Assembly: GCA_030390025.1 (NCBI GenBank)
Contig: CM059445.1
Span: 40,424,001 to 40,488,000 of the forward strand
Reading direction: 5' to 3'
DNA from: Squalus acanthias
Taxonomy: Eukaryota
DNA: 64,000 bases
Below are positions 12,526 through 52,046 of the stretch, one piece after another. The translations under genes and the position numbers were made by a program. How positions within the stretch are numbered: position 1 is the stretch's first letter; every line of letters starts with the position of its first letter. The notes below the pieces were generated by a model that was given only the letters and a program-made list of their open reading frames with translations, did no database searches and was not told where the DNA came from.

Positions 12526-12661
12526 TTGTAAGTTTGTGTAGTTGAATTAATTTGAATAATTGTTCAAAGCCCCTCACCACGTTGGGTTACATCTCCTCTA
12601 TATAACTGATATTTAGGTTGAGATACTGTTGTGCATTATTGATTGTGAATCCTTACACTGA

Positions 12662-12923
12662 TATAAGAACATAAGAGGTCAGAGCAGAAGTAGGCCATAC
12701 GGCCATTTGCGCCTGCTCCGCCATTCAATAAGATCATAGCTGATCATCGACCTCAACTCCACTTTTCCGCCTGATCTACATAGCCCTTGATTCCCCTTGA
12801 GTCCAAAAATCTGTCGATCTCAGCCTCGAATATACTCAAAGACTCAGCATTCACAGCCCTCTGGGGCAGAGAATTCCAAAGATTCACAACCCTCTGAGTG
12901 AAGAAATTCCTCCTCATCTCAGT
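12662..12923 (-). mobile_element. CR1 3' fragment inserted in gene A intron 1
   Basis: ataagaacataag tail; empty site present in gene B paralogous intron (ccttacactgatataagggtcggg, ~41710-41733). Confidence 0.8.
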
Positions 12924-13317
12924 AAGGGTCGGGGTTGTTTAAAGTTGTGTCGATCTTGGGTAAAAGTGGATCGTTGACTGAACATTTTTCAAAGAGATAG
13001 CAGCTACTTCACAGAACTGGAAGCATAGATTATTATGGCGACATCCTGATCTGTCTGCAACAGTTTCTGTCAAATAAACAAAATACAAAACAGTAAAAAA
13101 AATACTGCAGTATATTAGGTTTCAAACCGTTGCATAGTTTAGAATTAAGTCTGAAATAGACAAATATTTTAACAGGTTTTCTTTACATTAGATCCAATAG
13201 GAAGGATATCTCAAATTCAACACTGTTTAAATTGAGTTTTTGATGTTTCTCATTTATGTTGCAAGAATTGCTAACTGGACCCCAAACTGAAAATGACAAC
13301 TTATTTTATTCCATCAG

Positions 13318-13661
13318 GTGTCTCGCTGATTGAGGAGGTGACTCAGCCGCGTCTGGTCAGTGTCCTGAGAGGAGAGTCAGTCACAATAAACTGTACATTT
13401 ATTTATAATGGAAGTAATGATGACTTGCTCCATCCAGCCTGGTACAGGAGTTCTCCAGGGCTCCCTGATACTCCATTGACGTTAAACCGGCCTGCATTCC
13501 TGACGTTACTCCGGTTGGTTTGAGACGCTGTGTTGCACCACTGAAGATTGAAAATGTTTCTTTTGGTCACTCTGACTATAATTATACCTGTGTGGTGAAG
13601 GAACCGACAAGCTACCCGCCAGTAGCGAGAAAGGGGCAAGGAACACGGATACAGATTTATG
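13318..13661 (+). CDS. Gene A exon 2, germline VJ-type Ig V domain (1-bp deletion at ~13473)
   Basis: ccatcag| acceptor, G|gtaaag donor; VTQPRLVSVLRGESVTINC...WYR...LKIENVS...YTC...GQGTRIQIY. Confidence 0.9.
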
Positions 13662-13796
13662 GTAAAGTATTGTATATGTTATTGCAGTTAGCTAACAACA
13701 TTTATTTTTTACACACACATAAATATAACTACAGACCAGTCTCAGGCGTAGTGCAATGTACACTAGCAAGTTGTAGGACAGGCTGTGCTTATTCAG

Positions 13797-16875: not shown

Positions 16876-16975
16876 CAGATAGCCAGTCTGACTCCTGAGT
16901 TATACTGGCATTTTGGCATTAAAGCACACAGAAAAAAACTGTAGCCCACTGACATGACTGCTGACTGTTGCCCAT

Positions 16976-17210
16976 CCTCCTGAAGGTTCTACCATGGATG
17001 GTACTTTGGTTGCTGGACATTAGTCCACCCTGACCTGCTCTACTAAAGGGTTCTAATCTGACAATATCTCTTTTACTTGTCTAGATCATGGAACAAACAT
17101 CTCTATGCTCGTCACTACACTGACCACAAAAAGAGCTGGTGGTGGTACATCTGTTGCCACCAGCCAGCTTGAGATTGTCCCTAATGTGGGAGACCACAAA
17201 CAGTCTGTAG
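16976..17210 (+). pseudogene. Decayed extra C1-domain exon copy in gene A intron 2
   Basis: PPEGSTMDGTLVAGH*STLTCSTKGF*SDNISFTCLDHGTNISMLVTTLTTKRAGGGTSVATSQLEIVPNVGDH; stops at 17021 and 17054; no acceptor. Confidence 0.85.
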
Positions 17211-17551
17211 GGCATCTAGAGTGACATTGGTGTAATTCTCTAACATATATTTTGTTTCTTCATTCTTTTGATCAAGAGGAAAGGCTGATTTATCGACCGA
17301 TGTGATTCTATTTCACCAAAATAACGGGTTCTGCATGAAAGTACGGCAAAGTGTATTTTAATTTAGAATTAACTATTCAATCAGCAATAAATGATTTTAC
17401 ATTATGATATGCAATACATCTTCAGATTAGTGGCACTAAGAATCTCTAATAATGTTGCCATTCATGTCAACGTACATTATGTTAATAAATATTCACAGCG
17501 CAAGATATGGTGTTTATAGTTTCATATATTATCTTTTGTCCTCTCTCTCAG

Positions 17552-17854
17552 GACCTCCTGAAGTTTCCACTGTGGATGGTGATTTGGTTGCTGGACGTCA
17601 GTCCAGCCTGACCTGCTCTGTCAAGGGATTGTACTCTGAAAATATCTCCTTTACCTGGGCATGCCTTGGAACAAACATCTCCATAACCGTCACTACACTG
17701 ACCTCGAAAAGATTTGGTGACGATACATCTGTTGCCACCAGCCAGCTTCAGATCGTCCCTAAAGTGAGAGACCATGGATCTATCTGTAGATGTCAGATCA
17801 ATCATGAGACTTTCAGGCAGCCAGTAATAAATGAGATCCAACTGAATGTTATGT
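17552..17854 (+). CDS. Gene A exon 3, C1-like Ig domain (303 nt)
   Basis: ctctctctcag| acceptor, T|gtgagt donor; LTCSVKGLYSENISFTW...SQLQIVP...CRCQINHETF; extra Cys pair (WAC, SIC). Confidence 0.92.
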
Positions 17855-18454
17855 GTGAGTATGATCTTTAATCTTTTAAATACTTTGTTTTATTCTCTGT
17901 AATGCTAAAGATTCTGACTTTAACTTTGGACTCCCTCTTATTGTCTCCTCCCTATTCTCCTCTACAACCAAGACATATCTATCCTCATCTTTGCCATGCC
18001 TATGTAACCTGAATTTCCTCTGTGTCCATTTTGGCTGCTGTTCCAGACGCAATCCCATTACTTCTATCTCCCTTTTCCTTTCTCTTTTCTTTACCCCTCT
18101 TGAACCCTTCTCTCCTGTCTTCCTCCCTTCCTGTTACCCAATCATACCTCCTTTCATTTCTTCACTTTGTTCATCCGAATCCCTGCATCAACCCTTCATT
18201 ATTCCTCTACCCTCTTATTCTCCTGCTGCTCTCCCAGGCTTGAGTCCTTCTTAGATAATCCCACAGCTTCCCTCTGTGCCTCTCTCAGCAATCTCTGGAG
18301 GGCACATCGAGACACTTGTTGCTGCCTCCATATGAGCAGCAAACCTAACTATTCCATCCTACTCTCTTGCCTAGCTTCCCACCGAGCGCACCTGCTGGAG
18401 GCTAATCCTACCAACCTCCTCCCTGTCCTGTTCACTCTCCCACTGCTGACCTTG

Positions 18455-19130
18455 TGGACTCTGCCAGCCAATCAATAATCACCGCCCCTCTCCACATCTT
18501 CCTCCAAAATATCTTTTCATTCGTGAACAAGGCCCTTGCCATCCATGACCTTATTGTGGATGATTGTATTGATCTCATGGCCTTGACAGGAACTTGGTTC
18601 ACGGATGACACCTTGCCCCTTACTGAAGCCTCTCCGCCTGGCTATACCCTCCACCACCTGTCCTGCCCAAACTGCCGCAGTGGCGGTGTGGCCCTTATCA
18701 CCAAATCTCACCTTGGTCTGTCCATTTACACTTCTGGCACCTTTCGCCCCTCACCTTGTTCTACCCCTCTTGCCCCTCCTTTAAGATCCTCATTCTCTAC
18801 CACTCACTGAAGCCCCACTACTTTCCTCCTTCAGCTTTTGCAGCGAGCAGCTTCTCATCCTTGGTGATTTCAACCTTCATCTCAACAACCCACCTTGACC
18901 TCGCTCCACTGAGTTCACTGTCCTCCTGTCCTCCCTCAACCTCTCCCTCCATATATGCTCTTCTATATGGAGGTAACCGTATCAGGCCGTGAAGAAATAT
19001 ATGCCCGTATTCACGACTACCACTTCAACATTGCCATCTCATGTGGCCTCTCTGGTCACTGTCTCAGGCTGAATCAGACATTTTGCATCCTGGCGTCCTA
19101 TTTGATGCTGAGCTTCCAACCCCATCTCCT
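18455..19130 (+). mobile_element. L2 LINE fragments (APE endonuclease start), shared with 50740-51660
   Basis: LQNIFSFVNKALAIHDLIVDDCIDLMALTGTW...GGVALI. Confidence 0.75.
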
Positions 19131-19377
19131 CTGACCTGCTCTGCCAAGGGAGTGTACTCTGAAAATATCTCCTTTACCTGGGCATGCCTTGGAACAAACA
19201 TCTCCACAAACATCACTACACTGACCTTGAAAAGATCTGGTGACGATACATCTGTTGTCACCAGCCAGCTTCAGATCGTCCCTAAAGTGAGAGACCATGG
19301 ATCTGTCTGTAGATGTCAGATCAACCACGTGACTTTCAGGCAGCCAGTAATAAATGAGATCAAACTACATGTTATGT
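19131..19377 (+). pseudogene. 5'-truncated third C1 exon copy with intact donor, inserted in L2
   Basis: LTCSAKGVYSENISFTW...NEIKLHVM|gtgagt; its 3' intron differs from both intact C1 exons; absent from gene B intron. Confidence 0.85.
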
Positions 19378-19489
19378 GTGAGTATGATCCTCAACATTAT
19401 TGTTATTTTCAGTAATGTTTAAGAGCATAAGGTATAAGAAAAATGCTCACTGTCCAATTAGCAATTCTTTTTTCGTCAGTGGTTTACAA

Positions 19490-19920
19490 CTGTGTCAGCT
19501 TGGTTCAGTTAGTAGCACTCTCAGCTCGATATGAGAAAGTTGAGGGTTTGAACTGCACGCCAGGACTTGAGTGCATAATCTAGACTCACACTCGCATGCA
19601 ATACTAAGAATATACTACATTGCTGGTGGTGCCGTCCATCGGGTATGTTAAACCAAGGTCCTGGCTGCTGGTTCAGGTGGATGTTGAAGATCCCATGGCT
19701 CCGTTTCAGGAAAAGCAGGGAGTTACCCAGTGTGCTGATCAATATTCCCCCTAGCAGCCAATACCATCAGTAAACAGGTTAACTAGTTGTTCACCTCATG
19801 GCTGGTTTGGAACACCTCTGCCACTTTCAACTCCATAAAAACAGTCACTTACTCTAAAAGCATCACTCATTTTGTGATGTGCCTGGGAAACATTACGTTA
19901 TATAAATGCAAGTATAATTA
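19490..19920 (+). mobile_element. Degenerate DeuSINE (SacSINE1-like)
   Basis: tRNA-like head tgtgtcagcttggttcagttagtagcactc, Deu-domain similarity, tatataaatgcaag tail. Confidence 0.6.
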
Positions 19921-20114
19921 TAATATTATTTATTAGTTACACTTCCTAATATTTTCTTCTTTGGCTCAGTGTCAATGTTTGTCTGATTAGACTCCTGTGA
20001 AGCACCTTGGGATGTTTTCCTATCAGAAATGCGCTATGTAAATGCAAGTTGTTAAGATTACTGTATTCATATTGTTTCTATGTAAAATTAAGTGTACATT
20101 ATCTTTACTGTTAG

Positions 20115-20429
20115 ATGGACCAAAATATCCCACAATAATGCACAGGTTGAACAACAGCGACAGTTACCATCCTGGGACGAGTAGCCCCATCACTGTCCCC
20201 ATTGACTCATTCCTGGAACTGAGATGCTCTGTGGATAGTAACCCAGCCTCCTCTGTGATCTGGGCGAAAGACAGAGAAAACCACACTGAGATGTTACAAC
20301 TTGCAGCTGGATTAAATAGTTCAAAAGTAACCATAAGAAAGTTCCAGTCTGAAGATAGAGGAGTCTACTGGTGTATGGCAAACAACAGCTATGGCCGGGG
20401 TTACAGAAGTGTTTGGATAAAAGCTGAAG
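20115..20429 (+). CDS. Gene A exon 4, I/C2-type Ig domain (315 nt)
   Basis: ctgttag| acceptor, G|gtaaat donor; YGPKYP...LELRCSVDSNPASSVIW...EDRGVYWCMANNSYG. Confidence 0.92.
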
Positions 20430-20557
20430 GTAAATAGAAATTAAAAGATTAATGATAAATTTGATGCATGAATTATTAAGGGGACGTTCTGGGACATAGA
20501 CTACAAAAAGCTCCCTATCCAGTAATTTAATTTGCAAAACAATGTATGATTTATAGG

Positions 20558-20728
20558 GCATGATGCAGAGATGCCGGTGTTGGAGTGGGGTGGACAAAAG
20601 TGAGAAGTCGCACAACACCAGGTTATAGTCCAACAGATTTATTTGAAATCACAAGCTTTCGGAGCTGCTCCAAAAGCTTGTGATTTCAAATAAAACTGTT
20701 GGACTATAACCTGGTGTTGTGCGACTTC
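20558..20728. mobile_element. Fold-back Penelope-tail mini-element, copy 1
   Basis: ~60-bp inverted arms; 11-bp TSD tgatttatagg (20547-20557, 20729-20739). Confidence 0.8.
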
Positions 20729-20998
20729 TGATTTATAGGTGTGATAGATGTGGGGTGCATTCTGCATCAGATAGAACATATTTCTATTTTATATCTTGCT
20801 CATATAAAATCATAGCTCAGATATTGTGCTGTGAGTTTATAATGGAGCTCTATCAATTGCTTTAAAGGAATTTATTTTGCCTTTGCCTTGAAGACAAATA
20901 CACAAAATGGTCTGGAGAATAACTGCTAGATTATGAGAACATCTGACAGATTAAGAAGCGGTGACTCGCCTCTAGTTATGAGAAGAATGGAAATTGTT

Positions 20999-21880: not shown

Positions 21881-21981
21881 ATGACACTTGGATTCAGATT
21901 TTTGTTATAAGATCTTTTGCTGTTGCTGCATTCATTTTCATTCTAACCACACTGAGCTGCTTGGTTAGTTGCTGAATAAAG
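21881..21981 (+). CDS. Gene A exon 5, transmembrane with Arg: DDTWIQIFVIRSFAVAAFIFILTTLSCLVSC*IK
   Basis: cttcttccag| acceptor in phase 1, AAG|gtaaga donor; hydrophobic span with one Arg near its N-terminus; in-frame TGA 21973-21975. Confidence 0.8.
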
Positions 21982-25038: not shown

Positions 25039-26143
25039 ACCGATGGACACCTACGGACACTGAAAGATGCCCTCGTAAGAACGGGATATGACGCTCGACT
25101 CGTCGATCGACAGTTCCGACGGGCCACAGCGAAAAAGCGCACAGACCTCCTCAGAAGACGAACACGGGACACAACCAACAGAGTACCCTACGTCGTCCAG
25201 TACTTCCCCGGAGCGGAGAAACTACGCCATGTTCTTCGCAGCCTTCAACATGTCATCGATGACGACGAACACCTTGCTAAGGCCATCCCCACGCCTCCAC
25301 TACTCGCCTTCAAGCAGCCGCCTAACCTCAAAAGTACCATCGTTCGCAGCAAATTACCCAGCTGTCAGGAGAACAGCGACCACGACACCACACAACCCTG
25401 CCACGGCAACCTCTGCAAGACATGCCAGATCATGAACACAGATACCGTCATCGCACGTGAGGACACTACCCACCAGGTACATGGTACATACTCATGTGAC
25501 TCGGCCAACGTTGTCTACCTGATCCGTTGCAGTAAAGGATGCCCCAGAGCATGGTACATCGGCGAGACCATGCAGACACTGAGACAACGTATGAACGGAC
25601 ACCGCGCAACAATCGCCAAGCAGGATGGTTGCCTCCCAGTCGGGGAACACTTCAGGAGTCAAGGGCATTCAGCCTCGGATCTGCGGGTCAGCGTTCTCCA
25701 AGGCGGCCTTCGTGATACACAACAACGCAAAATCATCGAGCAGAAACTGATAGCCAAGTTCCGCACTCATGAGGACGGCCTCAATCGGGATATTGGGTTC
25801 ATGTCACGCTATAGAACGTGACTTGACATCGTTGCCGGTCTTTCCAGTTTAAAAAAAACCAAACAAACACAAGAAACAAACACAAAAAATGGAGAGGATA
25901 TGCAGCCAGCAGGTGTTCTGACGCGTTGGACCCCGTGGGACACATCTCATTGTCTTGGCTGTGCTCTTAGTGTGTCTTTGATGTAAGGAAAGATTTAATC
26001 TATGCATTTTCTCTGTGTTTTTATATTCTGTGAATTCTGATAGATTCTCTCACAGTAACTTTGCCTGACGAAGGGGCGACAGCTCCGAAAGCTTGTAATT
26101 TTAAATAAATCTGTTGGACTATAACCTGGTGTTGTGCGACTTC
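25039..26143 (+). mobile_element. 5'-truncated Penelope-like element (GIY-YIG endonuclease ORF 25033-25821)
   Basis: NVVYLIRC...WYIGET...LRQRMNGH...EQKLI...GLN; 12-bp TSD taattaatgtac (25027-25038, 26144-26155). Confidence 0.9.
26061..26098 (+). ncRNA. Minimal type I hammerhead ribozyme motif in PLE 3' tail
   Basis: ttgc-CTGACGA-a-ggggc-gaca-gctcc-GAAA-gc-TT-gtaa; palindromic AGCT. Confidence 0.7.
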
Positions 26144-27105
26144 TAATTAATGTACCTCATCTGTATGCAGGGTAAGATAGTCAAACTCTGTTTTAGTTAT
26201 ACAGTGTGTAATTTGATTCTGGGTAAATCATACATGCTGACCATCTGTGTTTTGAGAGTCCAGTCAAGAATCAGCATGGACTGGACCTATCTCCCCTTAA
26301 TGCCGAGTCCAGCTACGAATGGAAGTGGTTCTGTCTTCTGTATGCTGTGGATAGGAATTCTCCTGAAAACAGGGATTTGTGTTAACAGTATACAGTGGCT
26401 GGCATCACTTCAAGTAACAGGGCTGATGTAGATATGGCCTTGAAGGGAAAGGAAAGAGGGAGAGTGGAGGGGACCGGGACAAATGGATGGCAAAGGGAGG
26501 AAGGAAAGAAAGGTGAAAGGGAAGAAGGCAGAAGCCGGCAGTGGTACATTGAGAGGGAAGGGAGAGAAGGTTAAAAGCTGTTGGGAGGGCAGAAGCTGGG
26601 AGTGCTGTTTTGGGATGGGGAGGGAAGAGAGACACCGCATTAGCTGATCAGCTTTTCTCCCTCCAAGCCCATCAGTAGAAGCTGGCACTGTCGCTCTCCA
26701 CTTCCTTTCAGTTAACACTGGCACTGCCCTTTCCCTGCTCCCTCAGTTAATACTGAGGGAAGGAGAGTACCAGCAACAACAGAGGGAGTGGCTGGAAAGA
26801 GAATGCCAGTATTCACTGAGAGGGAGTAGGTAGGGAGAATGCCAGCTTGAGCTGAGAGACTTGGAGGAGGAAGATAATGCCAGCATGAACTGAGTGGGAA
26901 GCTGAGGGGTGAGGAGGGTGTTGGAAGAAGAGTGTCAGTATGAATCGGGAGGGTTGGAGAAGGACAGATTGTCTCTATGAAAGGTGAGTTAGATGGGGTA
27001 GAATGTCTTTATAACAGATCTGGAGTGAGTAGAATGCCTAAGTGAACTGAGATGAAGAGTTGGATATGAGAGAGTAAAGGTCTGCTCGATCTGTTGAAAA
27101 TCCAT

Positions 27106-32904: not shown

Positions 32905-33390
32905 TAAGAACATAAAACATAAGAAATAGGAGTAGGAGTAGACAATATGGCCCCTCGAGCCTGCTCCGCCATTCAATAAGATCATGGCTGAACTGCTACA
33001 TCAATTCCAATTTTTCACTCTATCCCCATATCTCTTGATTCACTTAGTGCCCAAAAACTATCGATCTCAGTCTTGAATATACTCATCGACTGAGCATCCA
33101 TAGCTTTCTGAGGTAGAAAATTCCAAAGAGTTACATCCCTCTGAGTGAAGAGATTTCTCCTCATCTCAGTCCTAAATGGCCGACCCCTTATCCTGAGACT
33201 ATGATTCCTAGTTCTAGACTCTCCAGCCAGGCGAAACAGCCTCTCAGCATTGAAATGTATAAAATTCTAAGAGGGTAGATGCTGAGAGGCTGTTTCCCCT
33301 GGCTAGAGAGTCTAGAACTAAGGGTCGCATCCCTTTGCAGTCTCTTTGCATCCTCCTCACAGTTTACTTTCCCACCTAGCTTTGTATCGG
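32905..33390 (-). mobile_element. CR1 fragments with internal inversion
   Basis: CR1 tail on -, inverted arms ~33208-33250 / 33279-33320, DTKLGGKVNCEEDAKRLQRD piece. Confidence 0.7.
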
Positions 33391-33391
33391 T

Positions 33392-35922
33392 ATGTTGGTA
33401 TGCTGCCTCCCTGGTGCCAGGGTCAAGGATGTCACTGAACGGCTGCAGAACATTCTGAGGGGGAAGGGTGAACAGCCAGAGATTGTGGTCCATATCGGTA
33501 TCAACGACAAAGGTAGAAAGAGGGATGAGGACATGCAGGCAGATTTTAGGGAGCTAGGAAAGAGATTAAAAAGCAGGACCTCAAAGGTAGTAATCTTCGG
33601 ATTACTCCCGGTGCCACGAGCTAGTGATTATAGGAATAGGATGATAGAGCAGAAGAATGCATGGCTGGAGAGGTGGTGCAAGAGGGAGGGCTTTAGATTG
33701 TTGTGGCATTGGGACCAGTTCTGAGGGAGGTGGGATCTGTACAGGCCAGATGGGTTGCACCTCAACTGAGCCGGGACCAATATCCTCGCTGGGGTTGTTT
33801 GCTAGTGCTGCTGGGGAGGGTTTAAACTAATTTGGCAGGGGGATGGGCACTAGGATGTAGCATTAGAAGAGATAAACAAAGTGCACAGAGGATTGGGAGA
33901 GACTAGAGCAAGAAATAGTACGGTATTAGGTGGGGTCAGACTAAGAGAGAATACAAGGTCTAAGACAGGTTTATAGTGCGTGTGTGTAAATGCATGAAAC
34001 GTGGTAAATAAGGTTGGTGAGCTGCAGGCGCAAACAGCCACATGGGAATATGATGTTGTGGCGATAACGGAGACCTGGCTCAAAAAAAGGCAGGATTGGG
34101 TATTAAATATGCCTGGATATAAGGTGTTCAGGAAAGATAGGGAATGAAAGAAAGGAGGTGGGGTGACAGTATTGGTTAAGGAGAATGTTACAGCGCTGGA
34201 GAGAGAGGATGTCCTGGAGGGATCAAGGACAGAATCTATTTGGTTACAGCCAAGAAATAATAGAGGTGCCATTACACTACTAGGTGTATTATATAGGCCG
34301 CCAAATAGTGGGAAAGATATGGAGGAACAAGTTTGTAGGGAAATTACAGGAGGTGCATGAACTATAGAGTAGTGATAATGGGGGCCTTCAACTATCCTAA
34401 TATAGACTGGGATAGTAATAGTGTAAAGGGCAGAGAGGGGGAAGAATTTCTGAAGTGTGTTCAGGAGAACTTTCTTGATCAGTACGATTCCAGCCCAACG
34501 AGGAAAGAGGCATTGCTGGATCTGGTTCTGGGGAATGAGGTGGGCAAGTGTCAGTAGGGGAACATTTAGGGAACAGTGATCATAGTATCATAAGGTTTAG
34601 ATTAGCTATGGAAAAGGACAGGGAGCAATCTAGAGTAAAAATACTTAATTGGAGGAAGGCCAATTTCTGTGGGTTGAGAACGGATCTGACCAGAGTAAAT
34701 AGGAATCAAAGATTGGCAGGCAAAACTGTAATTGAATAATGGGTTGCCTTTAAAGAGGAAATGGTTGGGATATAGTTGAGGTACATTCACACGAGGGGGA
34801 AAGGTAGGGTAACCAAAGTCAGAGCTTCCTGGATGACGAAAGAGATAGGGAGTAAGATGCAGCAAAAAAAGAACGCATATGACAGATGTCAGGTTGAGAA
34901 TACCAGTGAGAATCAGGCTGAATATAGAAAGTTCAGAGGGGAAGTGAAAAAGAAAATAAGTGGGGCAAAGAGAGAGTATGAGCATAGATTGGCAGCGAAC
35001 ATAAAAGGGAATTCAAAAGTCTTCTATAGGCATATAAATAGTAAACGGGTAGTAAGAGGAGGGATGGGGCTGATTACGGACCAAAAAGGAGACCTATGCA
35101 TGGAGGCAGAGGGCATGGCTGAGGTACTAAATGAGTACTTTGCATCTGTCTTTACCAAGGAAGAAGATGCTGCCAAAGTCATAGTGAAAGAGGAGGTAGT
35201 GGAGATACTGGATGGGATAAAAATTGATAAAGAGGACATACTAGAAAGGCTGGCTGTACTTAACGTAGATAAGTCACCAGGACCGGATGGGATGCATCCT
35301 AGGATGCTGAGGGAAGTTAAGATGGAAATTGCGGAGGTACTGGCCATATTCTTCCAATCCTCCCAAGATACAGGTGCAGTGCCAGAGGACTGGAGAATTG
35401 CAAATGTTAAACCCTTGTTCAAAAACAGGTGTAAGGATAAACCCAGCAACTGCAGGCCAGTCAGTTTAACCTTGGTAGTGGGGAAGCTTTTAGAAATGAT
35501 AATCAGGGACAAAATTAACAGTCACTTGGACAACTGTGGATTAATTAAGGAAAGCCAGCACAGATTTGTTAAAGACAAATCGTGTTAACTAACTTGATTG
35601 AGTTTTTTGTTGAGGTAACAGAGAGGGTTGATGAGGGCAATGGGGTTGACGTGGTGTACATGGAGTTCCAAAAGCCGTTTGAGAAAGTGCCACCTAATAG
35701 GCTTGCCAGCAAAGTTCAAGCCCATGGAATAAAAGGAACAGTGGCAGCATGGATACGAAATTGGCTAAGTGACAGAGAGTAGTATTTTTCGGACTGGGGA
35801 AGGTATACAGTGGTGTTCCCCAGGCGTCGGTACTAGGACAACTGCTTTTCTTGATATATATTAATGACTTGGAATTGGGTGTACAGGGCACAATTTCAAA
35901 ATCTGCAGCTGACACAAAACTC
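33392..35922 (+). mobile_element. Large degenerate CR1 LINE (ORF1 SGNH-esterase end plus ORF2 APE/RT, many stops)
   Basis: CLPGARVKDV...VVHIGIND...; GDFNYP-like; KSPGPDGMHPR...VPEDWRIANV.PLFK...RPVSLT. Confidence 0.9.
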
Positions 35923-36397: not shown

Positions 36398-38617
36398 AGG
36401 TTTGGCATACCGACCTCTACCTAGTGGAAGCTGAACGCCAACTCTCCGACACCTCTTCCTACCTCCACCTGGACCATGACCCCACTACCGAACATCAAGC
36501 CACCATTTCCAAGACTGTCACTGACCTCATCTCCTCTGGAGATCTTCACTCCATGGCCGCCAACCTCATAGTTCCCCAACCCCGCACAGCCCACTTCTAC
36601 CTCCTTCCCAAGATCCACAAACAGGACTGCCCTGGTAGACCCATCATTTCAGCCTGTTCTTGCCCCACGGAACTTATCTCTTCCTATCTCAACTCTATTT
36701 TTTCTCCCCTTGTCCAGTCTCTTCCCACCTACATCCGCGACTCTTCCGACGCCCTCCGCCATTTTAACAGTTTCCAGTTTCCTGGCCCCAACCGCCTCCT
36801 TTTCACTATCGACGTACAATCCCTCTACACCTCCATCCCCCACCAGGATGGCCTGAGGGCGCTCCGCTTCTTCCTTGAACAGAGGCCAAACCGGTCCCTA
36901 TCCACCACCACCCTCCTCCGCCTGGCTGAACTTGTTCTCACATTGAACAACTTCTCCTTTGACTCCACTCATTTCCTCCAAATCAAAAGTGTTGCTATGG
37001 GTACCCGCATTGGTCCTAGCTATGCCTGCCTTTTCGTGGGATATGTGGAACACTCTTTGTTCCAGTCCTACTCGGGTCCCCTCCCTCACCTCTTTTTCCG
37101 GTACATTAATGACTTTGTCGGTGCCGTCTCCTGCTCTCGCCCTGAACTAGAAAATTTCATTCACTATGCTTCCAATTTCCACTCTTCCCTCACCTTCACA
37201 TGGTCCATCTCCAACTCTTCCCTTCCCTTCCTCGACTTCTCTGTCGCCATCTCTGGGGATAGGTTATTGACTAACATTCACTACAAGCCCACTGACTCCC
37301 ACAGCTACCTGGACTATACTTCCTCCCACCCCGCCTCCTGTAAGGACTCTATTCCATTCTCCCAGTTTCTCCGTCTCCGCCGCATCTGCTCTGACGATGC
37401 CACCTTCCATACCAGTGCTTCCGACATGTCTTCCTTTTTCCTCAACCGAGGATTCCCCTCTACTGTGGTTGACACATCCCTCGACCGTGTCCGTTCTATC
37501 TCCCGCACTTCTGCCCTCACCCCTGCCCCTCCCTCCCGGAACCACGATAGAGTTCCCCTTGTCCTCATCTTTCACCCCACCAGCCTCCACATTCAACGGA
37601 TCATCCTCTGCCATTTCCGCCACCTCCAGCGTGATCCCACCACCAAACGCATCTTCCCCTCACCTCCCTTTTCAGCATTCCACAGGGACCGCTCCCTCTG
37701 CGACACCCTAGTCCACTCCTCTACCACCCCCAGCACCCCTTCCCCTTCACCTGGCACCTTCCCGTGCAAGCGCAGGAGATGCAACACATGCCCTTATACC
37801 TCCCCCCTTCCCACTGTCCAGGGCCCCAAACACCCCTTCCAGGTGAAACAGCGATTTACTTGTACTTCTTGCAATTTAGCATACTGTATTCACTGCTCAC
37901 AATGTGGTCTCCTCTACATTGGGGAGACCAAACACAGATTGGGTGACCGCTTTGCGGAACACCTCCATTCAGTCCGTAAGGGGGACCCCGAGCTCCCGGT
38001 GGCCTGTCACTTTAATTCTCCGCTCCACGACCACTCTGACCTCACCGTCCTCGGCCTCGTGCATTGTTCCACGGAAGCTCAGCGTAAGCTCGAGGAACAG
38101 CACCTCATCTTTCGATTAGGCACGCTACAGCCCTCTGGACTCAATATCGAGTTCAACAATTTCAGATCATAACCCCAGCCCCTACCACATATATATATAT
38201 TTTTATTTTATTTTTTCATCCATCCTTTTGTTTGGCCTTTTTTTCTTCCCTCCCAGAAGCTGGCAGCTGTCCTTCATTCTGCCAGCGCATTTCACACTTC
38301 ATCTAGCCTCAACCTGTCACATTACCACCTCCTCTTGCCTTGAATATCTCTTAATATCTCTCAATGTCTCTTAATCTCTCCTGCTTTCTATCCTACCACT
38401 GACCTTCCCTTTTGTTCTTTCATCCCCTCCCCCCTTTTCCCAGCATTGTACTTGCTTTAAATCTATTTTATTTCCTGCTTTTTTCCAGTTCTAACGAAAA
38501 CTCTTCGACCTGAAACGTTAACTCTGTTTCTCTCTCCACGGATGCTCCCTGGCCTGCTGAGTTTTTCCAGCGTTTTCTGTTGTTATTTCGGATTTACAGC
38601 ATCTGCAGTATTTTGCT
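36398..38617 (+). mobile_element. Penelope-like element, RT + GIY-YIG ORF 36424-38172 (582 aa, 5'-truncated)
   Basis: YLLPKIHK, GRPIIS, DVQSLYTSIP, AMGT..GPSYACLF, RYIND (YIDD mutated), HYKPTDSHSYL, LYIGETK, GLN; tail with hammerhead remnant at 38487-38523. Confidence 0.92.
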
Positions 38618-40400: not shown

Positions 40401-40552
40401 CAAGCATCGAAGCACAGAGCTGTTCTTACTCAGAGCTCCAGGGATGCACTGAGGCGGTATAACTCCAATCTGCAGGCGGCGCATCACACTCCACAGGTAC
40501 TGGCCTGACACTGCTATCTGCAGGATCACTGCAGTCTCAGTGCTTCCACAAG

Positions 40553-40778
40553 AATGAGAAGTCGCACAACACCAGGTTATAGTCCAACAGTTTTATTTGA
40601 AATCACGAGCTTTCGGAGCGCTGCTCCTTCGTCAGGTAAAGTGAAGTCCCACTTTACCTGACGAAGGAGCAGTGCTCCGAATGCTCGTGATTTCAAATAA
40701 AACTGTTGGACTATAACCTGGTGTTGTGCGACTTCTCATTTTTGTCCACCCCAGTCCAACACCGGCATCTCCGCATCA
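40553..40778. mobile_element. Fold-back Penelope-tail mini-element, copy 2, with hammerhead motifs on both strands
   Basis: 91-bp inverted arms 40553-40643 / 40650-40740; 12-bp TSD tgcttccacaag; intact HHR on - at 40603-40639, + copy has GAAA>GAAT. Confidence 0.85.
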
Positions 40779-41218
40779 TGCTTCCACAAGGGCAGGGAAG
40801 TGTCATGTGTAAGGAGCTTAAGCAAGGATAATAATGCACACATGCCTCTGAGCAATTTAACTGATGCAATTCTGGGAAGTGAGGAATTTGTTCTGTAAAA
40901 GTGTGTGCAGGTAGAAAATAACAATTGTATTCGTGGGAATCCATGGTAATTTGAAGCAGTACAAACTGTGTTTGTGAAATTTGTGACACGCCCACAGTAT
41001 TGTACTTGAAGTGATAGAAGTGGCATTGGAGTGATTCCAATGCAGCATTCAGAGCTCCAGGCTGTGGAGCTGAAACTGTCTTGGATACTCTGGCAGGATT
41101 CAGTTCTATTTGACCCACGCTCTCAGATCTTACCTTTCTTTACACAGATCCTCTCGTCATCTGCTCGAACTTGGCAGAACAGTCACTCAGAAAAAAAAAA
41201 CCTTTCTTCGCTTCCCAC

Positions 41219-41407: not shown

Positions 41408-41456
41408 ATGCAACTCTTGCTGAAGCTGCTTTTGATTTTACAGACAGGAGCTCAAG
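41408..41456 (+). CDS. Gene B exon 1, signal peptide MQLLLKLLLILQTGAQ(G)
   Basis: Hydrophobic leader, CAAG|gtaagt donor, phase 1; unrelated to gene A leader. Confidence 0.85.
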
Positions 41457-42120
41457 GTAAGTTTGATCGGGAGATCTGTACATTAGCGTGGCGCCTGGGT
41501 GTGGATTTTACAGGCAATTTCTCCCCCTTTTAGAATACTTCAGCATTTTAATAGTTGTGGAACTGCAGAGTCTAAGTGAGAAAGCTGTGTAACTTGGACA
41601 CTAGATTAACGTCAGTGTTCAAAGCCCCACATCACATTGTTTGGGTTAAGTCTCCTCTATATAACTGATATTTAGGTTGAGATACTGTCGTGTATTATTG
41701 ATTGTGAATCCTTACACTGATATAAGGGTCGGGTTATTTAAAGTTGTGTCGATCTTGGGTAAAAGTAGGTCATTCACTGAACAGTGTTCAAAGTGATAGC
41801 AGCTACTTCACAGAACTGGAAGCAAAGATCTCCCATAGATTATTATGGCGACATTCTGATCAGTCTGCGACAGTTTGTGTAGAATAAAACAAATTCAAAA
41901 CAGTAAAAAAAATTACTTCAGAATATCAGGTCTCAAACCGTCACATAGTTTAGAATTAAATCTGAAAAAGACAAATTTTTTTTTTTTACATTAGATCCAA
42001 TAGGAAGGATACCTCAAATTCAACACTGTTCAAATTGCGTTTTTGATGTTTCCCATTTATGTTGAATGAATTGCTAACTGGACCTCAAACTGAAAATGAC
42101 AACTTATTTTATTCCATCAG

Positions 42121-42463
42121 GTGCCTCGCTGATTGAGGAGGTGACTCAGCCGCGTCTGGTCAGTGTCCTGAGAGGAGAGTCAGTCACAATAAACTGTACA
42201 TTTATTTATAATGGAAATAATGATGACTGGCTCCGTCCAAACTGGTACAGAGTTCTCCAGGGCTCCCTGATACTCTCATTGAAGTTAAACCGACCTGCAT
42301 CCTGACGTTACTCCGGTTGGTTTGAGACGCTGTGTTGCACCACTGAAGATTGAAAATGTTTCTTTTAGTCACTCTGACTATAATTATACCTGTATGGTGA
42401 AGGTACCGACAAGCTACCCACCAGTAGAGAGAAAGGGGCAAGGAACACGGATACAGATTTATG
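42121..42463 (+). CDS. Gene B exon 2, germline VJ-type V domain (1-bp deletions after 42250 and 42300)
   Basis: ~96% nt identical to 13318-13661; same splice sites. Confidence 0.9.
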
Positions 42464-42514
42464 GTAAAGTATTGCATACCTTGTAATAAGTAGAAAGACA
42501 GTGGCTACATCTTT

Positions 42515-45375: not shown

Positions 45376-45569
45376 TTCTACATCGGAAAATCAGCCAATC
45401 AATGAATGAAAATTGCTGGCACTGGGCCCACAATGTTTGATTCACAATTGCGAGATGTGACAAGGACCCAGAGATTTTATCTTGTAGTGTGTAGAACAAT
45501 ATCACTGGTGATTGGCACTAAGCAAGTGGTAATTCCAAATTCAACCTTTATTTTATTATTTACTTTAAA

Positions 45570-46040: not shown

Positions 46041-46577
46041 CTTTATCGTAATACCATTCCATTTCATTCCTAATTGGTGATCCAACACTGCGCACCATCC
46101 ATTACCAACTGCGTGACCGGCTCCCAGAGCTTGGCCAGTCCATCAGTGAAGATGCCTGCTAGCGAGTGCATAGCAGCAGCTCCACAATGATTTTCACTCT
46201 AATTTTCCCACCCTGTCTCCCGGGGCTTAATGCCCAGCCTCTGCTTAGCACATAGGCCCAGCCGTGCAGTTCAGATAAGGGACTCAAGGGTTTGCGGTAT
46301 TGAAAGCATCAGCTCACTCCCACCACTCCATGAATTATATTTCAGTTAATTAGGTGCAAGTAGTGGCAGGCATGCTAGATACAAGACTTTTATTTTAAGT
46401 ATTGACAGGTAGTAACTAAAGAGCCTACATATTAATGCCTGATTTCCCAGCTGATAAGATATTCAAGTGAGTTTCGCTCTTTGCTTTAAGAACTGTATTC
46501 ACAGGAACTATGGGGAAAAGAGCATAAACACACACACCACGTATTTATGAAGTTGATCTCCACTGTATTTATAAGAG

Positions 46578-46785
46578 CCATGATGTGGAGATGCTGGTGT
46601 TGGACTGGGGTGGACAAATACGAGAAGTCGCACAACACCAGGTTATAGTCCAACAGCTTTATTTGAAATCACAAGCTTTTGGAGCGCTGCTCCTTCGTCA
46701 GGTGAAGTGTGAAGGAGCAGCGCTCCAAACGCTTGTGATTTCAAATAAAGCTGTTGGACTATAACCTGGTGTTGTGCGACTTCTC
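46578..46785. mobile_element. Fold-back Penelope-tail mini-element, copy 3
   Basis: ~75-bp inverted arms; 13-bp TSD gtatttataagag (46565-46577, 46786-46798); HHR GAAA mutated. Confidence 0.85.
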
Positions 46786-46914
46786 GTATTTATAAGAGTT
46801 CATGCTAAAAGAAAATATTTCAACAGATGCTTTACCCATCCATAAATATTTTGTAACAATAAATGGTTTCCAGCTTTAACATGCAAGATGGCAAACAATT
46901 CTACTTATACATAG

Positions 46915-47318: not shown

Positions 47319-48049
47319 AGTAAACATGCTAAATTTAGTTTATGGTAAAAATCTTATTAAAGCAGTCATGTCATCAAAGTTGAATGCTGCCAAAAACTGC
47401 AAGGGCAGACTTTTCCAAGGCCAAGTAGCATTGACGGGGCCTCACATGCAGCAGCCAGTATATTGGAAAATTGCAGGTGCACTACACATGATTTTCTGTC
47501 CATTGATATTAATGAGTGGAAACCAGTGGCAGTGTACTGCAGCTTTCTGATAAGCTGCCCGCTGTGTTTGGTTCTGCCTTTTGCACAAGGCTTTGAAAAT
47601 TCCAGTTCATGTGCCCGTTGTTGATGTCACTGGAGCAGAACTACAGGATGTCGCATCAGGGGAATTTAACACAAAATAACTGGTCCCAGGGTAAGCATGA
47701 AGCAATGTAACAAAAGGTGACAGAAATACACCATCTGCAGTATTCAGCACACTCAATGGTAAAGCACCTTATATGGACCTGGCTTCTCTTGTAGTTAGTC
47801 ACAGAGAAGATCCCAATATATACTCATTCTGCTACCATTAATCCACCATTAAATTGTCTTTGTGTGACATTAATGCTGCCCAGTAGGTAATGTAGAACAT
47901 AGGACTATGGTACATGAGCTACTCTGATCAGATGATTGCTATTGAGAAATCCCAGTATAAGATCCTGATTGAGCAGCTATCTAGAGTGATATTAGTATAA
48001 TTCTCTAACATATGTTTTGTTTCTTGATTTTTTTCATCTAAAAGACTAT

Positions 48050-48670
48050 GGGGCAAAAATTGGCTCATGCTCTCTTCGGGGCGATAACTTCGCCGGGCAA
48101 AGTTAGTGTCCCCGTGCCCGAAATTGAATGGTAGCGCCTCAAGCAGGAGGCGAGGCACTACTAGAAGTGCACCCCCTCCCTCTTGGGGTGCTCCCATTCA
48201 ATATCACGGCTCTACGTGCAGCAGCGCCACGCGCGTCGGCACGTAGTGCTACGGTACTGCAGGGGAGGGCCCTGCTGGACCACCGGGGAGCAGGGTGCCG
48301 GCAAAAGAGCCTGGCACTCGAGGAGTGCCGGGCTGCTCGATCGCGGCCGGCACCCGGCAAGAGGAGGTGAGAGGGGGCAGGTGCTGGCAGGCAGCCCGAG
48401 GAAAGATGGCCGCCCGGCACCTGCCCTTTAATTTGCGCCGCCGCGGCTGCAGAAACGCCCCCCTGACCCTGTCGGACATAGCGTCTGGCAGTAGGTCAGG
48501 GGCGCGAGCCAAGCTTGCGGCCGGGGCGCGAGCTAGGTGTTGTGCACGGCGATGACGTCATCGGCGGAGGCGCAGCGCCACGGGGTGCTACCGGCTACCG
48601 CCGCCACCGCTAACCTCCCGCTGAATTCGGGGAGCTAACGGGAGGCGCAAATCAACCCAATCTTTCCCCC
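48050..48670. mobile_element. GC-rich Harbinger-type MITE
   Basis: ggggcaaaaattgg / ccaatctttccccc termini, flanks tat/tac; absent from gene A paralogous intron. Confidence 0.7.
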
Positions 48671-48936
48671 TACTTTAACTACCTATGTGACTCTATTTTA
48701 CCAAAATAACAGGTTCTGCATGAAAGTATGGCAAAGTATATTTTAATTTAGAATTAACTATTCATTCAGCAATAAATGATTTTACATTATGATATGCAAT
48801 ACATTTTTAGAATAGTGGCACTAAGAATCTCTAATAATGTTGCCATTTACGTCAATGTACATTATGTTAATATATATTCACAGAGCAGGATATGGTGTTT
48901 ATAGTTTCATATATTATCTTTTGTCCTCTCTCTCAG

Positions 48937-49239
48937 GACCTCCTGAAGTTTCCACTGTGGATGGTGATTTGGTTGCTGGACGTCAGTCCAATCTGACCTG
49001 CTCTGCCAAGGGATTGTACTATGAAAATATCTCCTTTACCTGGGCATGCCTTAGAACAAACTTCTCCACAACCGTCACTACACTGACCTCAAAAAGATTT
49101 GGTGACGATACATCTGTTGCCACCAGCCAGCTTCAGATCGTCCCTAATGTGAGTGACCATGGATCTATCTGTAGATGTCAGATCAATCATGAGACTTTCA
49201 GGCAGCCAGTAATAAATGAGATCCAACTGAATGTTATGT
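48937..49239 (+). CDS. Gene B exon 3, C1-like Ig domain (303 nt, intact)
   Basis: 93/101 aa identical to gene A exon 3; same splice sites. Confidence 0.92.
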
Positions 49240-49300
49240 GTGAGTATGATCTTTAATCTTTTAAATACTTCGTTTTATTCTCTGTAATGCTAAAGATTCT

Positions 49301-50197
49301 GGGGGAAAAATTTAGTTGGTTGCGCCTCCCGTTAGTGCCTTAAGAGGGCGCTAATGGGGCGCAAAGCATCTAGCGCCCAGGCGCGGCGATTTTTGCGCCG
49401 CTCGCGAAATTAACTAGACATTTTGCGGCGGCGCTAAACACTACCGCCACGATCTCCTGCGCCGGCAGATCGTGACGTCAGTCGACTGCGCAACGCCCCG
49501 GTATCGCCCCGGAGCGGATATTGAGTGGCGCCCCCTGCCTTACCGCCTGACGCTAGCAACGACAGTTTGAGTGGAGCGTTCTGCAGTCATGAAGGGAAAG
49601 GGGGAGCGCTATTTAAAGGTGACCGCTTCCTGCCTTTTATTGTTGGTGCCATTTTTGAACTACGCATTCTGAGAGAGAGAGAGAGAGAGAGACTTCTGGA
49701 GAGTTTCAACGTTGTGTGAAGGAGTTTTGGGTACTGAGCAGCACTTTGCAGGTTCATTTTGATTTGCGATTCCTTGTATCGATTTAGAAGAGACTGTTTG
49801 GGCTGCACTCTGAGCTCTTTGCCTGGTACTCTCCATTGTTCTTCCCAGCAGATTTGATGTGCAGGTCTCTCCAGGCCGAGATTCAAGGCTGCAATTAGTA
49901 GGATGTGGATGGAAAGTGAGATTAACCATCCCCTTTAAGAACTGGCCCATGCCATTGTCTGTGTGTTCCATTGCTGACTGACATTACATGAGCTTCGCCA
50001 GCGCTCTGAGATAGCGCCTCGCTCCTCGGCCTTTGTGCCTTAAGACAGGAGTGAAGCGCCTGATTTAGCGCTCCAATCACCTCCAGGGGCGATAAAAGTC
50101 AAGTTTGCAGTCGGTGGCGATAATTAGTGCCAGGCGCTAATCTTTGCGCCCGGCCGATAATTGCGCCCCCAATGGGGTGATACTGAATGTCTCCCCC
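49301..50197. mobile_element. Harbinger-type MITE with 3-bp TSD TCT
   Basis: ggggg...ccccc termini; empty site aaagattctgactttaac in gene A at ~17907-17924. Confidence 0.85.
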
Positions 50198-51725
50198 TCT
50201 GACTTTAACTTTGGACTCCCTCTTATTGTCTCCTCCCTATTCTCCCTCTACAACCAAGACATATCTATCCTCATCTTTGCCATGCCTATGTAACCTGAAT
50301 TTCCTCTGTGTCCATTTTGGCTGCTGTTCCAGACGCAATCCCATTATTTCTATCTCCCTTTTCCTTTCTCTTTTCTTTACCCCTCTTGAACCCTTCTCTC
50401 CTGTCTCCCTCCCTTCCTGTTACCCAATCATACCTCCTTTCATTTCTCCACTTTGTTCATCCAAATCCCTGCATCTACCCTTCATTATTCCTCTACCCTC
50501 TTATTCTCCTGCTGCTCTCCCAGGCTTGAGTCCTTCTTAGATAATCCCACAGCTTCCCACTGTGTCTCACTCAGCAATCTCTGGAGGGCACATCGAGACA
50601 CTTGTTGCTGCCTCCATATGAGCAGCAAACCTAACTATTCCATCCTACTCTCTTGCCCAGCTTCCCACCGAGCGCACCTGCTGGAGGCTAATCCTACCAA
50701 CCTCCTCCCTGTCCTGTTCACTCTCCCACTGCTGACCTTGTGGACTCTGCCAGCCGATCAATAATCACCGCCCCTCTCCACATCTTCCTCCAAAATATCT
50801 TTTCATTCGTGAACAAGGCCCTTGCCATCCATGACCTTATTGTGGATGATTGTATTGATCTCATGGCCTTGACAGGAACTTGGTTCACGGATGACACCTT
50901 GCCCCTTACTGAAGCCTCTCCGCCTGGCTATACCCTCCACCACCTGCCCTGCCCAAACTGCCACAGTGGCGGTGTGGCCCTTATCACCAAATCTCACCTT
51001 GGTCCGTCCATTTACACTTCTGGCACCTTTTGCCCCTCAGCTTGTTCTACCCCTCTTGCCCCTCCTTTAAGATCCTCATTCTCTACCACTCACTGAAGCC
51101 CCACTACTTTCCTCCTTCAGCTTTTGCAGCGAGCAGCTTCTCATCCTTGGTGATTTCAACCTTCATCTCAACAACCCACCTTGACCTCGCTCCACTGAGT
51201 ACACTGTCCTCCTGTCCTCCCTCAACCTCTCCCTCCATATATGCTCTTCTATATGGAGTTAACCGTATCAGGCCGTGAAAAAATATATGCCCGTATTCAC
51301 GACTACCACTTCAACATTGCCATCTCATGTGGCCTCTCTGGTCACTGTCTCAGGCTGAATCAGACATTTTGCATCCTGGCGTCCTATTTGACGCTGAGCT
51401 TCCAACCCCATCTCCTCGCCACATCATTGGTGGCCCTGCCTTCAGCCTTTTAGGCCCTAAGCTCTGGAATTCCTTCCGTAAACCTCTCCACCTCTCTCTC
51501 CTCTTTAAGATATTCCTAAAAACCTAACTCTTTGACCAAGCTTGTAGTTACACTATCTAATATTTTCTTCTTTGGCTCAGTGTCAATGTTTGTCTGATTA
51601 GACTCCTGTGAAGCACCTTGGGATGTTTTCCTATCAGAAATGTGCTATGTAAATGCAAGTTGTTCAGATTATTGTATTCATATTGTTTCTATGTAAAATT
51701 AAGTGTACATTATCTTTACTGTTAG

Positions 51726-52046
51726 ATGGACCAAAATATCCCACAATAATGTACAGGTTGAACAACAGCGACAGTTACCAACCTGGGATGAGTAGCCCCA
51801 TCACTGTCCCCATTGACTCATTCCTGGAACTGAGATGCTCTGTGGATAGTAATCCAGCCTCCTCTGTGATCTGGGTGAAAGACAGGGAAAACCACACTGA
51901 GATGTTACAACTTGCAGCTGGATTAAATAGTTCAAAAGTAACCATAAGAAAATTCCAGTCTGACGATGGAGGAGTCTACTGGTGTATGGCAAACAACAGT
52001 TACGGCTGGGGTAACACAAGTGTTTCGATAAAAGCTGAACAGAAAG
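51726..52046 (+). CDS. Gene B exon 4, I/C2-type Ig domain (321 nt, intact)
   Basis: ~90% aa identical to gene A exon 4; ends KAEQK G|gtaaaa. Confidence 0.92.

Follow-up and report, generated by a model that had tools for sequence, protein, structure and literature searches.

The window, a 64,000-nt stretch of the Squalus acanthias genome, holds two receptor genes, A and B, that share the exon order leader, V (J-like), C1-set, I-set and transmembrane (TM). Gene A, on the + strand, comprises a leader exon (12071..12128, from the ATG to a phase-1 donor), a V exon (13318..13661; 344 nt, one base short near 13472 in the assembly), a C1-set exon (17552..17854; open, phase 1/1), an I-set exon (20115..20429; open), and a TM exon (21881..21975) that is single copy genome-wide. 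The TM exon places an arginine in the N-terminal third of the helix and has a stop directly past it, leaving no tail. Gene B, likewise on the + strand, consists of leader (41408..41456), V (42121..42463; 343 nt, lacking two bases in the assembly, near 42252 and near 42299), C1-set (48937..49239), I-set (51726..52046) and TM (52626..52727) exons. Its TM helix lacks a charged residue, and five further tail exons lie 18-42 kb past the window (contig coordinates ~40,505,741-40,529,763). These tail exons contain three ITIM-like motifs of the pattern [SIVLT]xYxx[ILV]; judged at the sequence level, the two genes appear to carry opposite signalling motifs. A Pfam scan of 150 of the 420 unmasked ORFs in 464 kb yielded no usable neighbour gene; apart from a weak dynamin-type match, all it detected was retroelement domains.

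Self-BLAST and segment alignments place all non-repeat homology between A and B in two tracts totaling 3.26 kb. The first-pass annotation had confined the homology to ectodomain exons; no other exons are indeed covered, but most of the length, ~2.29 kb (70%), is intron. Tract 1 (12561..13673 in A, 41616..42475 in B, both +) takes in the end of intron 1 and the V exon in two blocks (12561-12667 = 41616-41726; 12923-13676 = 41723-42478) that are ~90% identical, and identity stops at 13673/42475, about 12 nt past the V donor as originally placed. Tract 2 (47979..52039 in B, +) is divided in A into tract 2a (17214..19130, +; end of intron 2, C1 exon and LINE-derived intron 3), which equals 47979-51416 minus two insertions in B, and tract 2b (19934..20428, +; LINE tail and I exon). 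Its aligned blocks are 17214-17273 = 47979-48038, 17289-17913 = 48674-49298, 17914-19130 = 50199-51416, and 19934-20428 = 51545-52039. Previously described as one block, tract 2 keeps its coordinates and its end at the aaagctgaa motif closing the I exon, but it is interrupted by the two B insertions and an A-only segment of 803 bp. The I-exon donors remain alignable to ~20441/52058. Beyond the tracts, blastn at word size 7 detected nothing 3' of the I exon and, elsewhere, a single 25-nt match (E 0.005) besides dispersed repeats, which have 24-54 copies in 464 kb. Repeats aside, the promoters, the V-C1 intron interior and all sequence 3' of exon 4 are as unalignable as had been reported; the leaders, included in the same claim, are faintly alike (DNA shuffle p=0.0025).

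Together the tracts differ at 130/3240 sites, plus gene-specific insertions, and divergence by segment ranges from 1.6 to 12%. Equal divergence across the whole genes, named by the first-pass annotation as the pattern contrary to its reading, is not what we observe (intron heterogeneity p=3e-11). In tract 1, mismatches number 41/489 in intron and 13/342 in exon; the LINE-derived block of intron 3 has 19 in 1217 sites (Fisher p=1e-10 for the two introns), and mismatches cluster along the tracts (p=4e-4). The LINE-like piece (17914..19130, +) is 98.4% identical to its B copy (~98.4-99% across comparisons), in agreement with the near-identical intronic repeat noted earlier. Over a 601-bp part of it, other copies in the genome reach 74-78% at best, and we therefore reject a young transposable element (TE) as the cause of the 98% intron identity.

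Insertions add a relative chronology. A SINE-like repeat (12663..12923, +; 261 bp, short target duplication) splits tract 1 in A, where B retains the empty site. In B, a MITE-like repeat with inverted GGGG..CCCC ends (48050..48670, no strand assigned) corresponds to a locally diverged site in A, and a young MITE-like element (49301..50198, no strand assigned) has a 3-bp target duplication, closest genome copies at 98%, and a clean empty site in A. The A-only segment (19131..19933, +) replaces 128 bp of B and interrupts a LINE that is continuous there. It begins with an extra, 5'-truncated and more ancestral copy of the C1 exon (19131-19377, +) that has a donor and a different intron: A and B agree against it at 13 sites, the remaining patterns accounting for 6 and 2, and 5/5 outgroup proteins lie closer to it. 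On the 5' side, a second and degenerate C1 exon copy (16972..17213, +; ~80%, with stops and no acceptor) abuts the start of tract 2. The unequal divergence, the old LINE common to both genes at ~99%, and the later gene-specific insertions show several events. Copying of tract 2a from B to A is somewhat more likely than not, given that B has the LINE uninterrupted whereas A has it cut where the tract ends and retains an older C1 copy there. Positive selection on the pair is unsupported, with an overall pN/pS of 1.10 (p=1.0); the V exons differ by 12 nonsynonymous and 1 synonymous changes, a number too small to demonstrate selection and one that assembly errors may have raised.

Both gene types are present in Heptranchias, Pristiophorus and Scyliorhinus. 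Of the 13 other species with matches, these 3 are the ones in which A-type genes were found, and absence from the remainder may reflect annotation gaps or loss. Amino acid identity between A and B over V/C1/I is 90/92/90% within S. acanthias and 88/99/94% within Pristiophorus; orthologous ectodomain domains of these two species are 69-80% identical. The TMs of A and B from one species are 19-34% identical, vs 52-71% for same-type TMs of different species; the TM of S. acanthias A is 62-71% identical to the A-type TMs of three other sharks and 23% to that of B. Its leader, outside both tracts, shares 75% of residues with the Heptranchias A-type leader. In protein trees (LG+G4), an A clade is rejected for the ectodomain (19 rows; AU p=2.7e-5, delta lnL 325) and for each domain (V 1.6e-5, C1 8.5e-46, I 3.3e-6). 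Within-species sister pairs are recovered for S. acanthias and Pristiophorus (each 100/100) and, on C1, for Scyliorhinus (98/96); on the I domain alone, support for the S. acanthias pair is only 65/94. The TM tree, built from 36 columns only, rejects an A+B pair (AU p=6.6e-5), does not reject an A clade (p=0.43), and supports a B clade at 85/100. The predicted contrast, ectodomains clustering by species and TMs by gene, is thus borne out by AU tests, although homogenisation is incomplete in Heptranchias V and I (59% and 75% within-species identity) and Scyliorhinus I (49%), none of which form sister pairs. With orthologous TMs across sharks and species-wise ectodomains, the proposal of old paralogues is supported, in a partly homogenised form. 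The A/B pair is older than the divergence between the two main lineages of sharks. Squalomorphs and galeomorphs separated ~250-300 million years ago.

A third paralogue, gene C, bears on the history of A. At the DNA level, the leader of A scores 91 against that of C (p=2e-4) and just 34 against that of B, indicating that A is a mosaic. TM exon homology between A and C is not significant (protein p=0.15; DNA p=0.66), so we claim the leader link alone; the DNA comparison of C and B TM exons gave p=2e-4. GC3 is 0.45-0.48 in the converted C1 and I exons vs 0.35-0.36 in gene C, a hint of GC-biased conversion.

We consider it highly likely that A and B are an old shark Ig-superfamily receptor pair, likely activating and inhibitory, whose outer exons have likely been re-matched by repeated gene conversion. 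Conversion is the most likely route to the matching outer parts; double unequal crossover gives the same pattern. It is very improbable that collapsed or cross-polished repeats created the likeness during assembly. We compared public sequencing runs with tract 1 of A. Both V exons are frameshifted in the assembly, which the first-pass annotation had missed; the one-base deletions are absent from other runs, and some letters of gene A are matched by none of them, suggesting consensus errors or private alleles. However, two DNA runs from different samples (X1 and X5) each yield separate A-type and B-type intron-1 contigs, one contig continues from the V exon of A into A's own intron, the tracts carry the mismatches and gene-specific insertions described above, and Pristiophorus repeats the pattern. 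The same frameshifts, together with the degenerate C1 fragments in A, might instead mean that conversion is real but neutral and that A or both genes are decaying pseudogenes, as in human SIGLEC16P. No A-type transcript was seen in the run comparison over tract 1 of A, and relaxed constraint is reported for Siglec-11/16 (PMC5701461). We find this reading unlikely. Contigs of runs X1, X6 and X8 are free of the break in gene A, and a B-like contig of X8, spliced from V to C1, is free of both B gaps, so the V exon breaks are probably assembly errors and a pseudogene reading of them is disfavoured; that X8 is RNA is a guess supported solely by its splice junction. Gene A, moreover, keeps an open frame between C1 and its stop codon and has canonical splice sites, and the TM arginine is retained in 4/4 A-type genes.

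Alternatively, one whole gene could simply have been duplicated in recent times, with everything outside the tracts then diverging fast or being replaced by TEs. TE-dense introns (67% of 464 kb masked) could wipe out alignability, but the sharp tract ends, the TM tree, and the closeness of A's TM to other A-type TMs rather than to B speak against it. It is refuted by the A-type orthologues in other sharks (TM and leader in Heptranchias, TM in Pristiophorus and Scyliorhinus), and we give it almost no credence. A repeated birth of the activating gene is a less remote, though still improbable, explanation: in each lineage, a new duplicate of the B ectodomain would have been joined to a leader and TM of activating type that were already there, through a single unequal crossover or exon-shuffling event and with no continuing conversion. 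The mosaic structure of A, with its C-like leader, would fit, and the duplicated C1 exon scars resemble insertion events. A single event, however, predicts one divergence level rather than the range among segments, domain ages differ within each species, and V alleles are a patchwork between individuals. This alternative differs from repeated conversion chiefly in molecular route and frequency.

Domain calls for the shark proteins are V-set, C1-set (scoring above C2-set_2) and I-set, where Siglecs, as type I membrane proteins, have one V-set followed by C2-set domains; the J-like motif GxG[TS]x[IL]x[IVS] closes 21/21 V rows. SIRP germline V domains also have a J-like G-strand motif. SIRP alpha/beta/gamma share the order of a J-like V followed by C1, but their ectodomain is V-C1-C1, and the shark third domain is I-set/ig with no C1-set match. 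A search with V only gave 12 matches at E<=0.05, comprising TCR, antibody chains and SIRP-beta1, the last a weak match (E 0.038). Whole-ectodomain Foldseek top matches were MAG Ig1-3 and CD22; VIA-align put SIRP-gamma on top but tied (Z 15.1, rmsd 6.0, 278 aligned, identity 16%), and as SIRP-gamma, nectin-3, Necl-4 and MAG fall within 1 Z, we reject a family assignment by fold. Comparison with the ESM Atlas returned generic Ig clusters. V plus C1 matches Ig lambda chains best (E 3e-13), and also UrIg2, both germline-joined VJ-C1 genes; unlike these, the shark genes have an I-set third domain, a TM, and ITIM or arginine signalling, and the passages searched in PMC12227049 do not treat this family. 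The automatic name "Siglec" fails the arginine test: Siglecs have an essential arginine in the V-set YxFR motif (PMC13358205), and YxFR is found in 0/21 shark V rows (one row partial). Also unlike Siglecs, the shark V has the canonical F-strand cysteine (20/20 complete V domains) and ends in the J-like motif.

The parallel with SIGLEC5/14 and SIGLEC11/16 drawn at first nevertheless holds as an analogy. These are adjacent inhibitory (ITIM) and adaptor-coupled activating genes whose N-terminal Ig exons and introns are partly converted, a pattern recurring per species (PMC4042635, PMC5701461). Conversion in the shark pair reaches all three Ig domains but not promoter or leader; in the Siglecs it covers the first two domains and, in 11/16, also upstream DNA. 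Another difference is the age of the shark pair, which goes back beyond the divergence of the two main shark lineages. Similarly, the merohomogenization of KLRC, KLRI, KLRB, Ly49 and PIR pairs, as described in PMC3210942, combines orthologous signalling parts with species-wise ligand-binding parts and was recognized by the same test; those are unrelated lectin or LILR-type mammalian families with known ligands. Among cartilaginous fish, skate MDIRs also have activating and inhibitory members, but they are multigenic with CD300/TREM/pIgR-like domains (PMC3031540), and no MDIR-named protein is among the matches of shark A/B proteins. Our literature search, which took in few subscription journals and main texts only, listed no paper that describes this family or gene conversion within a receptor pair of sharks.

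By analogy with known families, the ITIMs of B would recruit SH2 phosphatases, and the TM arginine of A would engage an adaptor carrying an ITAM, with FcR-gamma or zeta the likeliest. Siglec-14 uses a comparable TM arginine with DAP12, so the arginine does not fix the adaptor. Two PF11628 (FcR-gamma/zeta-type TM) exons are present in this genome. CD89, NKp30 and NKp46 bind FcR-gamma or zeta through an arginine near the top of the TM (PMC13107469). Conversion may begin in the homologous Ig exons and extend into flanking intron, and conversions reaching leader, TM or tail may be selected against or prevented where homology is missing. Keeping the ligand-binding parts matched, as we infer, predicts that both proteins bind one common ligand and that A could counter microbes exploiting B. 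More tentatively, A may come from the gene-C lineage, with which it shares the leader and a TM arginine, its ectodomain having been overwritten by B and re-matched since before the squalomorph-galeomorph split to variants now segregating, within an undescribed VJ-C1-I family mislabelled "Siglec". If true, the pair would be among the longest-lived conversion-coupled receptor pairs known, pointing to a ligand that persists while changing fast, for instance a pathogen mimic or polymorphic self molecule.

The homogenisation mechanism itself is already known from mammalian paired immune receptors. The present pair adds cartilaginous fish to mammals and Xenopus, in which partial homogenisation has been described, and does so in a two-gene system simple enough for TE insertions to reveal tract ends, donor direction and relative ages, and it provides shark immunology with a candidate activating/inhibitory pair with a predicted shared ligand. 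Sialic acid binding should not be read into the RefSeq names "Siglec-12/13/14" that these shark proteins bear. Finally, frameshifts in converted exons of such genes can be assembly errors.

The two neighbouring immunoglobulin-superfamily receptor genes in this window, A and B, share non-repeat homology in two tracts only, and window self-BLAST with global alignment of each segment reproduced both at the coordinates put forward in the first-pass annotation. In tract 1 (A 12561-13673, B 41616-42475), homology runs through the 3' part of intron 1 and the V exon, breaking off, as had been claimed, 12 nt beyond the V donor. Tract 2 (A 17214-20428, B 47979-52039) takes in the 3' part of intron 2 and both the C1 and I exons with intron 3 between them; it is interrupted by two B-only insertions and an 803-bp A-only segment. 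Together, they span 3,255 bases of gene A, ~70% of them intronic. Outside the tracts, a sensitive comparison of the promoter with the leader, the inner part of the V-C1 intron, and the region 3' of the I exon recovered dispersed repeats and a single 25-nt match (E 0.005) between the genes, and nothing else.

Both reading frames are open from C1 on, with canonical splice sites. Homologous proteins guided placement of the transmembrane (TM) exons (A 21881-21975; B 52626-52727; both plus strand) and of the B tail, which consists of five exons 18-42 kb past the window end. The A helix carries an arginine in its N-terminal third and is immediately followed by a stop; the B helix is uncharged, and B encodes three ITIM-like hexamers. 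Members of a short palindromic repeat family occur at 20549-20737, 26058-26148, 40548-40780, and 46567-46794. Retroelement remains, which by eye we take to be Penelope-like and CR1-like, lie between the genes (25051-25812, 33300-35920, and 36400-38170), and the long B intron holds a short tandem array (56187-56422; unit ~24 bp).

Homologues are found in sharks and rays, with V-set, C1-set, and I-set domains by Pfam. Heptranchias, Pristiophorus, and Scyliorhinus canicula each encode both A-type and B-type proteins; the remaining 10 species with matches have only B-type and/or C-type proteins, the latter resembling an upstream paralogue, gene C. Identity of A to B across V/C1/I is 90/92/90% in Squalus acanthias, 88/99/94% in Pristiophorus, 59/85/75% in Heptranchias, and 87 (23 residues only)/80/49% in Scyliorhinus. 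TM identity is 19-34% for A versus B inside a species and 52-71% for same-type genes across species. In an ectodomain tree of 19 aligned sequences (without the second copies from Mustelus and Rhinoraja; window V exons entered with X at frame breaks), A and B are sisters at 100/100 in both S. acanthias and Pristiophorus. An A clade is rejected by the AU test (p=2.7e-5) and by V, C1, and I each taken singly (20-21 sequences). For the TM (36 columns), the A+B pair is rejected (p=6.6e-5) and an A clade is not (p=0.43). The predicted clustering of ectodomains by species and TMs by gene therefore holds, but incompletely: A and B do not pair for the V and I domains in Heptranchias or for I in Scyliorhinus, and I alone supports the S. 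acanthias pair at only 65/94. Since A-type TMs occur in squalomorph and galeomorph sharks alike, the A/B pair predates the divergence of these two lineages (~250-300 million years ago). Mustelus (P0021/P0036) and the skate Rhinoraja (P0022/P0037) each have two 95-99% identical genes, all with B-type leaders; the second copies, without an ITIM tail as annotated, could represent decoy-type duplicates of independent origin, or else incomplete gene models.

These trees, along with unequal divergence within the tracts, uphold the earlier interpretation of old paralogues with ectodomains matched most likely by conversion. Judged from segment divergence, an old shared LINE, and gene-specific insertions, the exchange history is one of several events rather than one. 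Intron divergence by segment is 1.6% (19/1217), 8.4% (41/489), and 11.7% (7/60), counts that may contain some errors (heterogeneity p=3e-11; mismatch clustering p=4e-4 over 3,240 sites). The shared intron piece, an old LINE-like copy, is 99% identical between A and B and 74-78% identical to 38 other full-length copies scored from 4,273 candidates. A B-only MITE-like element has relatives at 98% and a cleanly empty site in A, and a SINE present in A is absent from B; most simply, both inserted after local exchange. In A, the LINE stops at 19130 (the 19130/19131 junction is assembly-based) and restarts at 19934; in B, it is uninterrupted. The intervening A segment (19131-19933) contains an additional copy of the C1 exon, truncated at its 5' end, that has a donor of its own. 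Intact A and B exons agree against this copy at 13 sites, and all five outgroup proteins are nearer to it than to the intact exons. Because the LINE is split in A around an older C1 copy and continuous in B, we lean towards copying of a B tract into A, with the truncated C1 as A's leftover older exon. The B C1 exon (48939-49238) has six sites unlike both A and the extra copy, mostly amino-acid changing, which are possibly escape changes or errors.

The V exon is 344 nt in A and 343 nt in B, where 345 would be in-frame. Contigs from four of 20 public sequencing runs were compared over A tract 1; X1, X6, and X8 have one extra base at 13472, and X5 coverage stops short of the V exon. Two X1 contigs across A's break have a single gap each, so that neither contains B's deletions. 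The X8 contig, with one gap and 10 substitutions, nine of them B letters (B itself has 12 there), runs on into the first C1 exon bases and is a spliced, in-frame, B-like transcript. Given these intact frames, the V exon breaks are probably assembly errors, or else private alleles. Mis-assembly as the cause of tract 1 likeness, an alternative raised at the outset, is disfavoured by the distinct A and B intron contigs in X1 and X5. At 13298-13443, where A and B differ at six sites, X1 yields one contig (depth 49); just upstream, A and B each have a contig of their own (depths 23 and 33). X8 has B letters absent from X1. This combination suggests that V exchange tracts vary between individuals, bearing in mind that contigs can drop variants.

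Own-genome searches, whose counts are lower bounds, detected one more relative, gene C, which lies on the opposite strand ~200 kb upstream (G000:C22, chromosome coordinates, about 40,220,000-40,240,000, minus strand; L023-L025). Its V, C1, and I exons are open, its TM arginine occupies the same position as A's, its tail is short, and its leader is A-like; orthologues occur in Pristiophorus, Hemitrygon, Hemiscyllium, and Scyliorhinus. Identity to A/B is 55-57% in V and only 39-43% in C1 and I, which suggests an older exchange of V alone. The A leader and flanks align to gene C with a score of 91 (p=2e-4) versus 34 to B; A may thus be a C-lineage gene carrying a B-type ectodomain, with mixed evidence from the TM exon. 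The same chromosome carries a partial V-like fragment (about 40,233,650; L004), a second, isolated gene C TM exon copy (about 40,297,770, plus strand; L031), and a retroviral-type element (40,344,001-40,364,000; L036-L037) with ORFs for RT, RNase H, and integrase domains, plus one of 666 aa that lacks a Pfam match.

To the observed gene anatomy, signalling-part orthology, and patchy homogenisation, established families add a putative mechanism in which B would inhibit through its ITIMs and A would activate through an adaptor. In CD89, NKp30, and NKp46, as described in the available text, an arginine near the helix top contacts FcR-gamma/zeta (PMC13107469). Two zeta/FcR-gamma-family TM exons (PF11628) are present in this genome (L059, G000:C5; L060, G000:C1222), whereas the accessible portion of a report on shark data of 2014 lists no FcR-gamma (PMC4016189). 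Alternatively, the adaptor may be DAP12. pN/pS between A and B is 1.10 overall, and V has 12 nonsynonymous and one synonymous changes, too few to show selection. The least supported step, modelled on Siglec-5/14 as excerpted in PMC4042635, is that A would counter microbes exploiting B.

In way of working, the pair resembles Siglec-5/14 (PMC4042635), Siglec-11/16 (PMC5701461), and the 'merohomogenized' KLR and PIR pairs (PMC3210942), as far as the excerpts describe them. Partial homogenisation of paired receptors is thus already known as a phenomenon, and a literature search, outside supplements and most subscription journals, returned no description of this shark receptor family; its value lies in the shark lineage, apparent age, readable tract history, and corrected Siglec label. 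Homologues are automatically named 'Siglec-8 to -14', 'MAG-like', or 'sialoadhesin-like'. We do not class the pair as Siglecs: the YxFR arginine, a Siglec V feature in the text available (PMC13358205), occurs in 0/21 aligned proteins, and the V end is J-like in all 21. With a predicted Heptranchias A protein (pLDDT 77.7, pTM 0.50), Foldseek ranked MAG and CD22 top, and VIA-align tied SIRP-gamma, nectin-3, Necl-4, and MAG; the V domain alone matched TCR-alpha, antibody chains, and SIRP-beta1 weakly. SIRP identity was rejected on domain order. The Hemiscyllium B-type protein (P0015) has its V domain duplicated in tandem.
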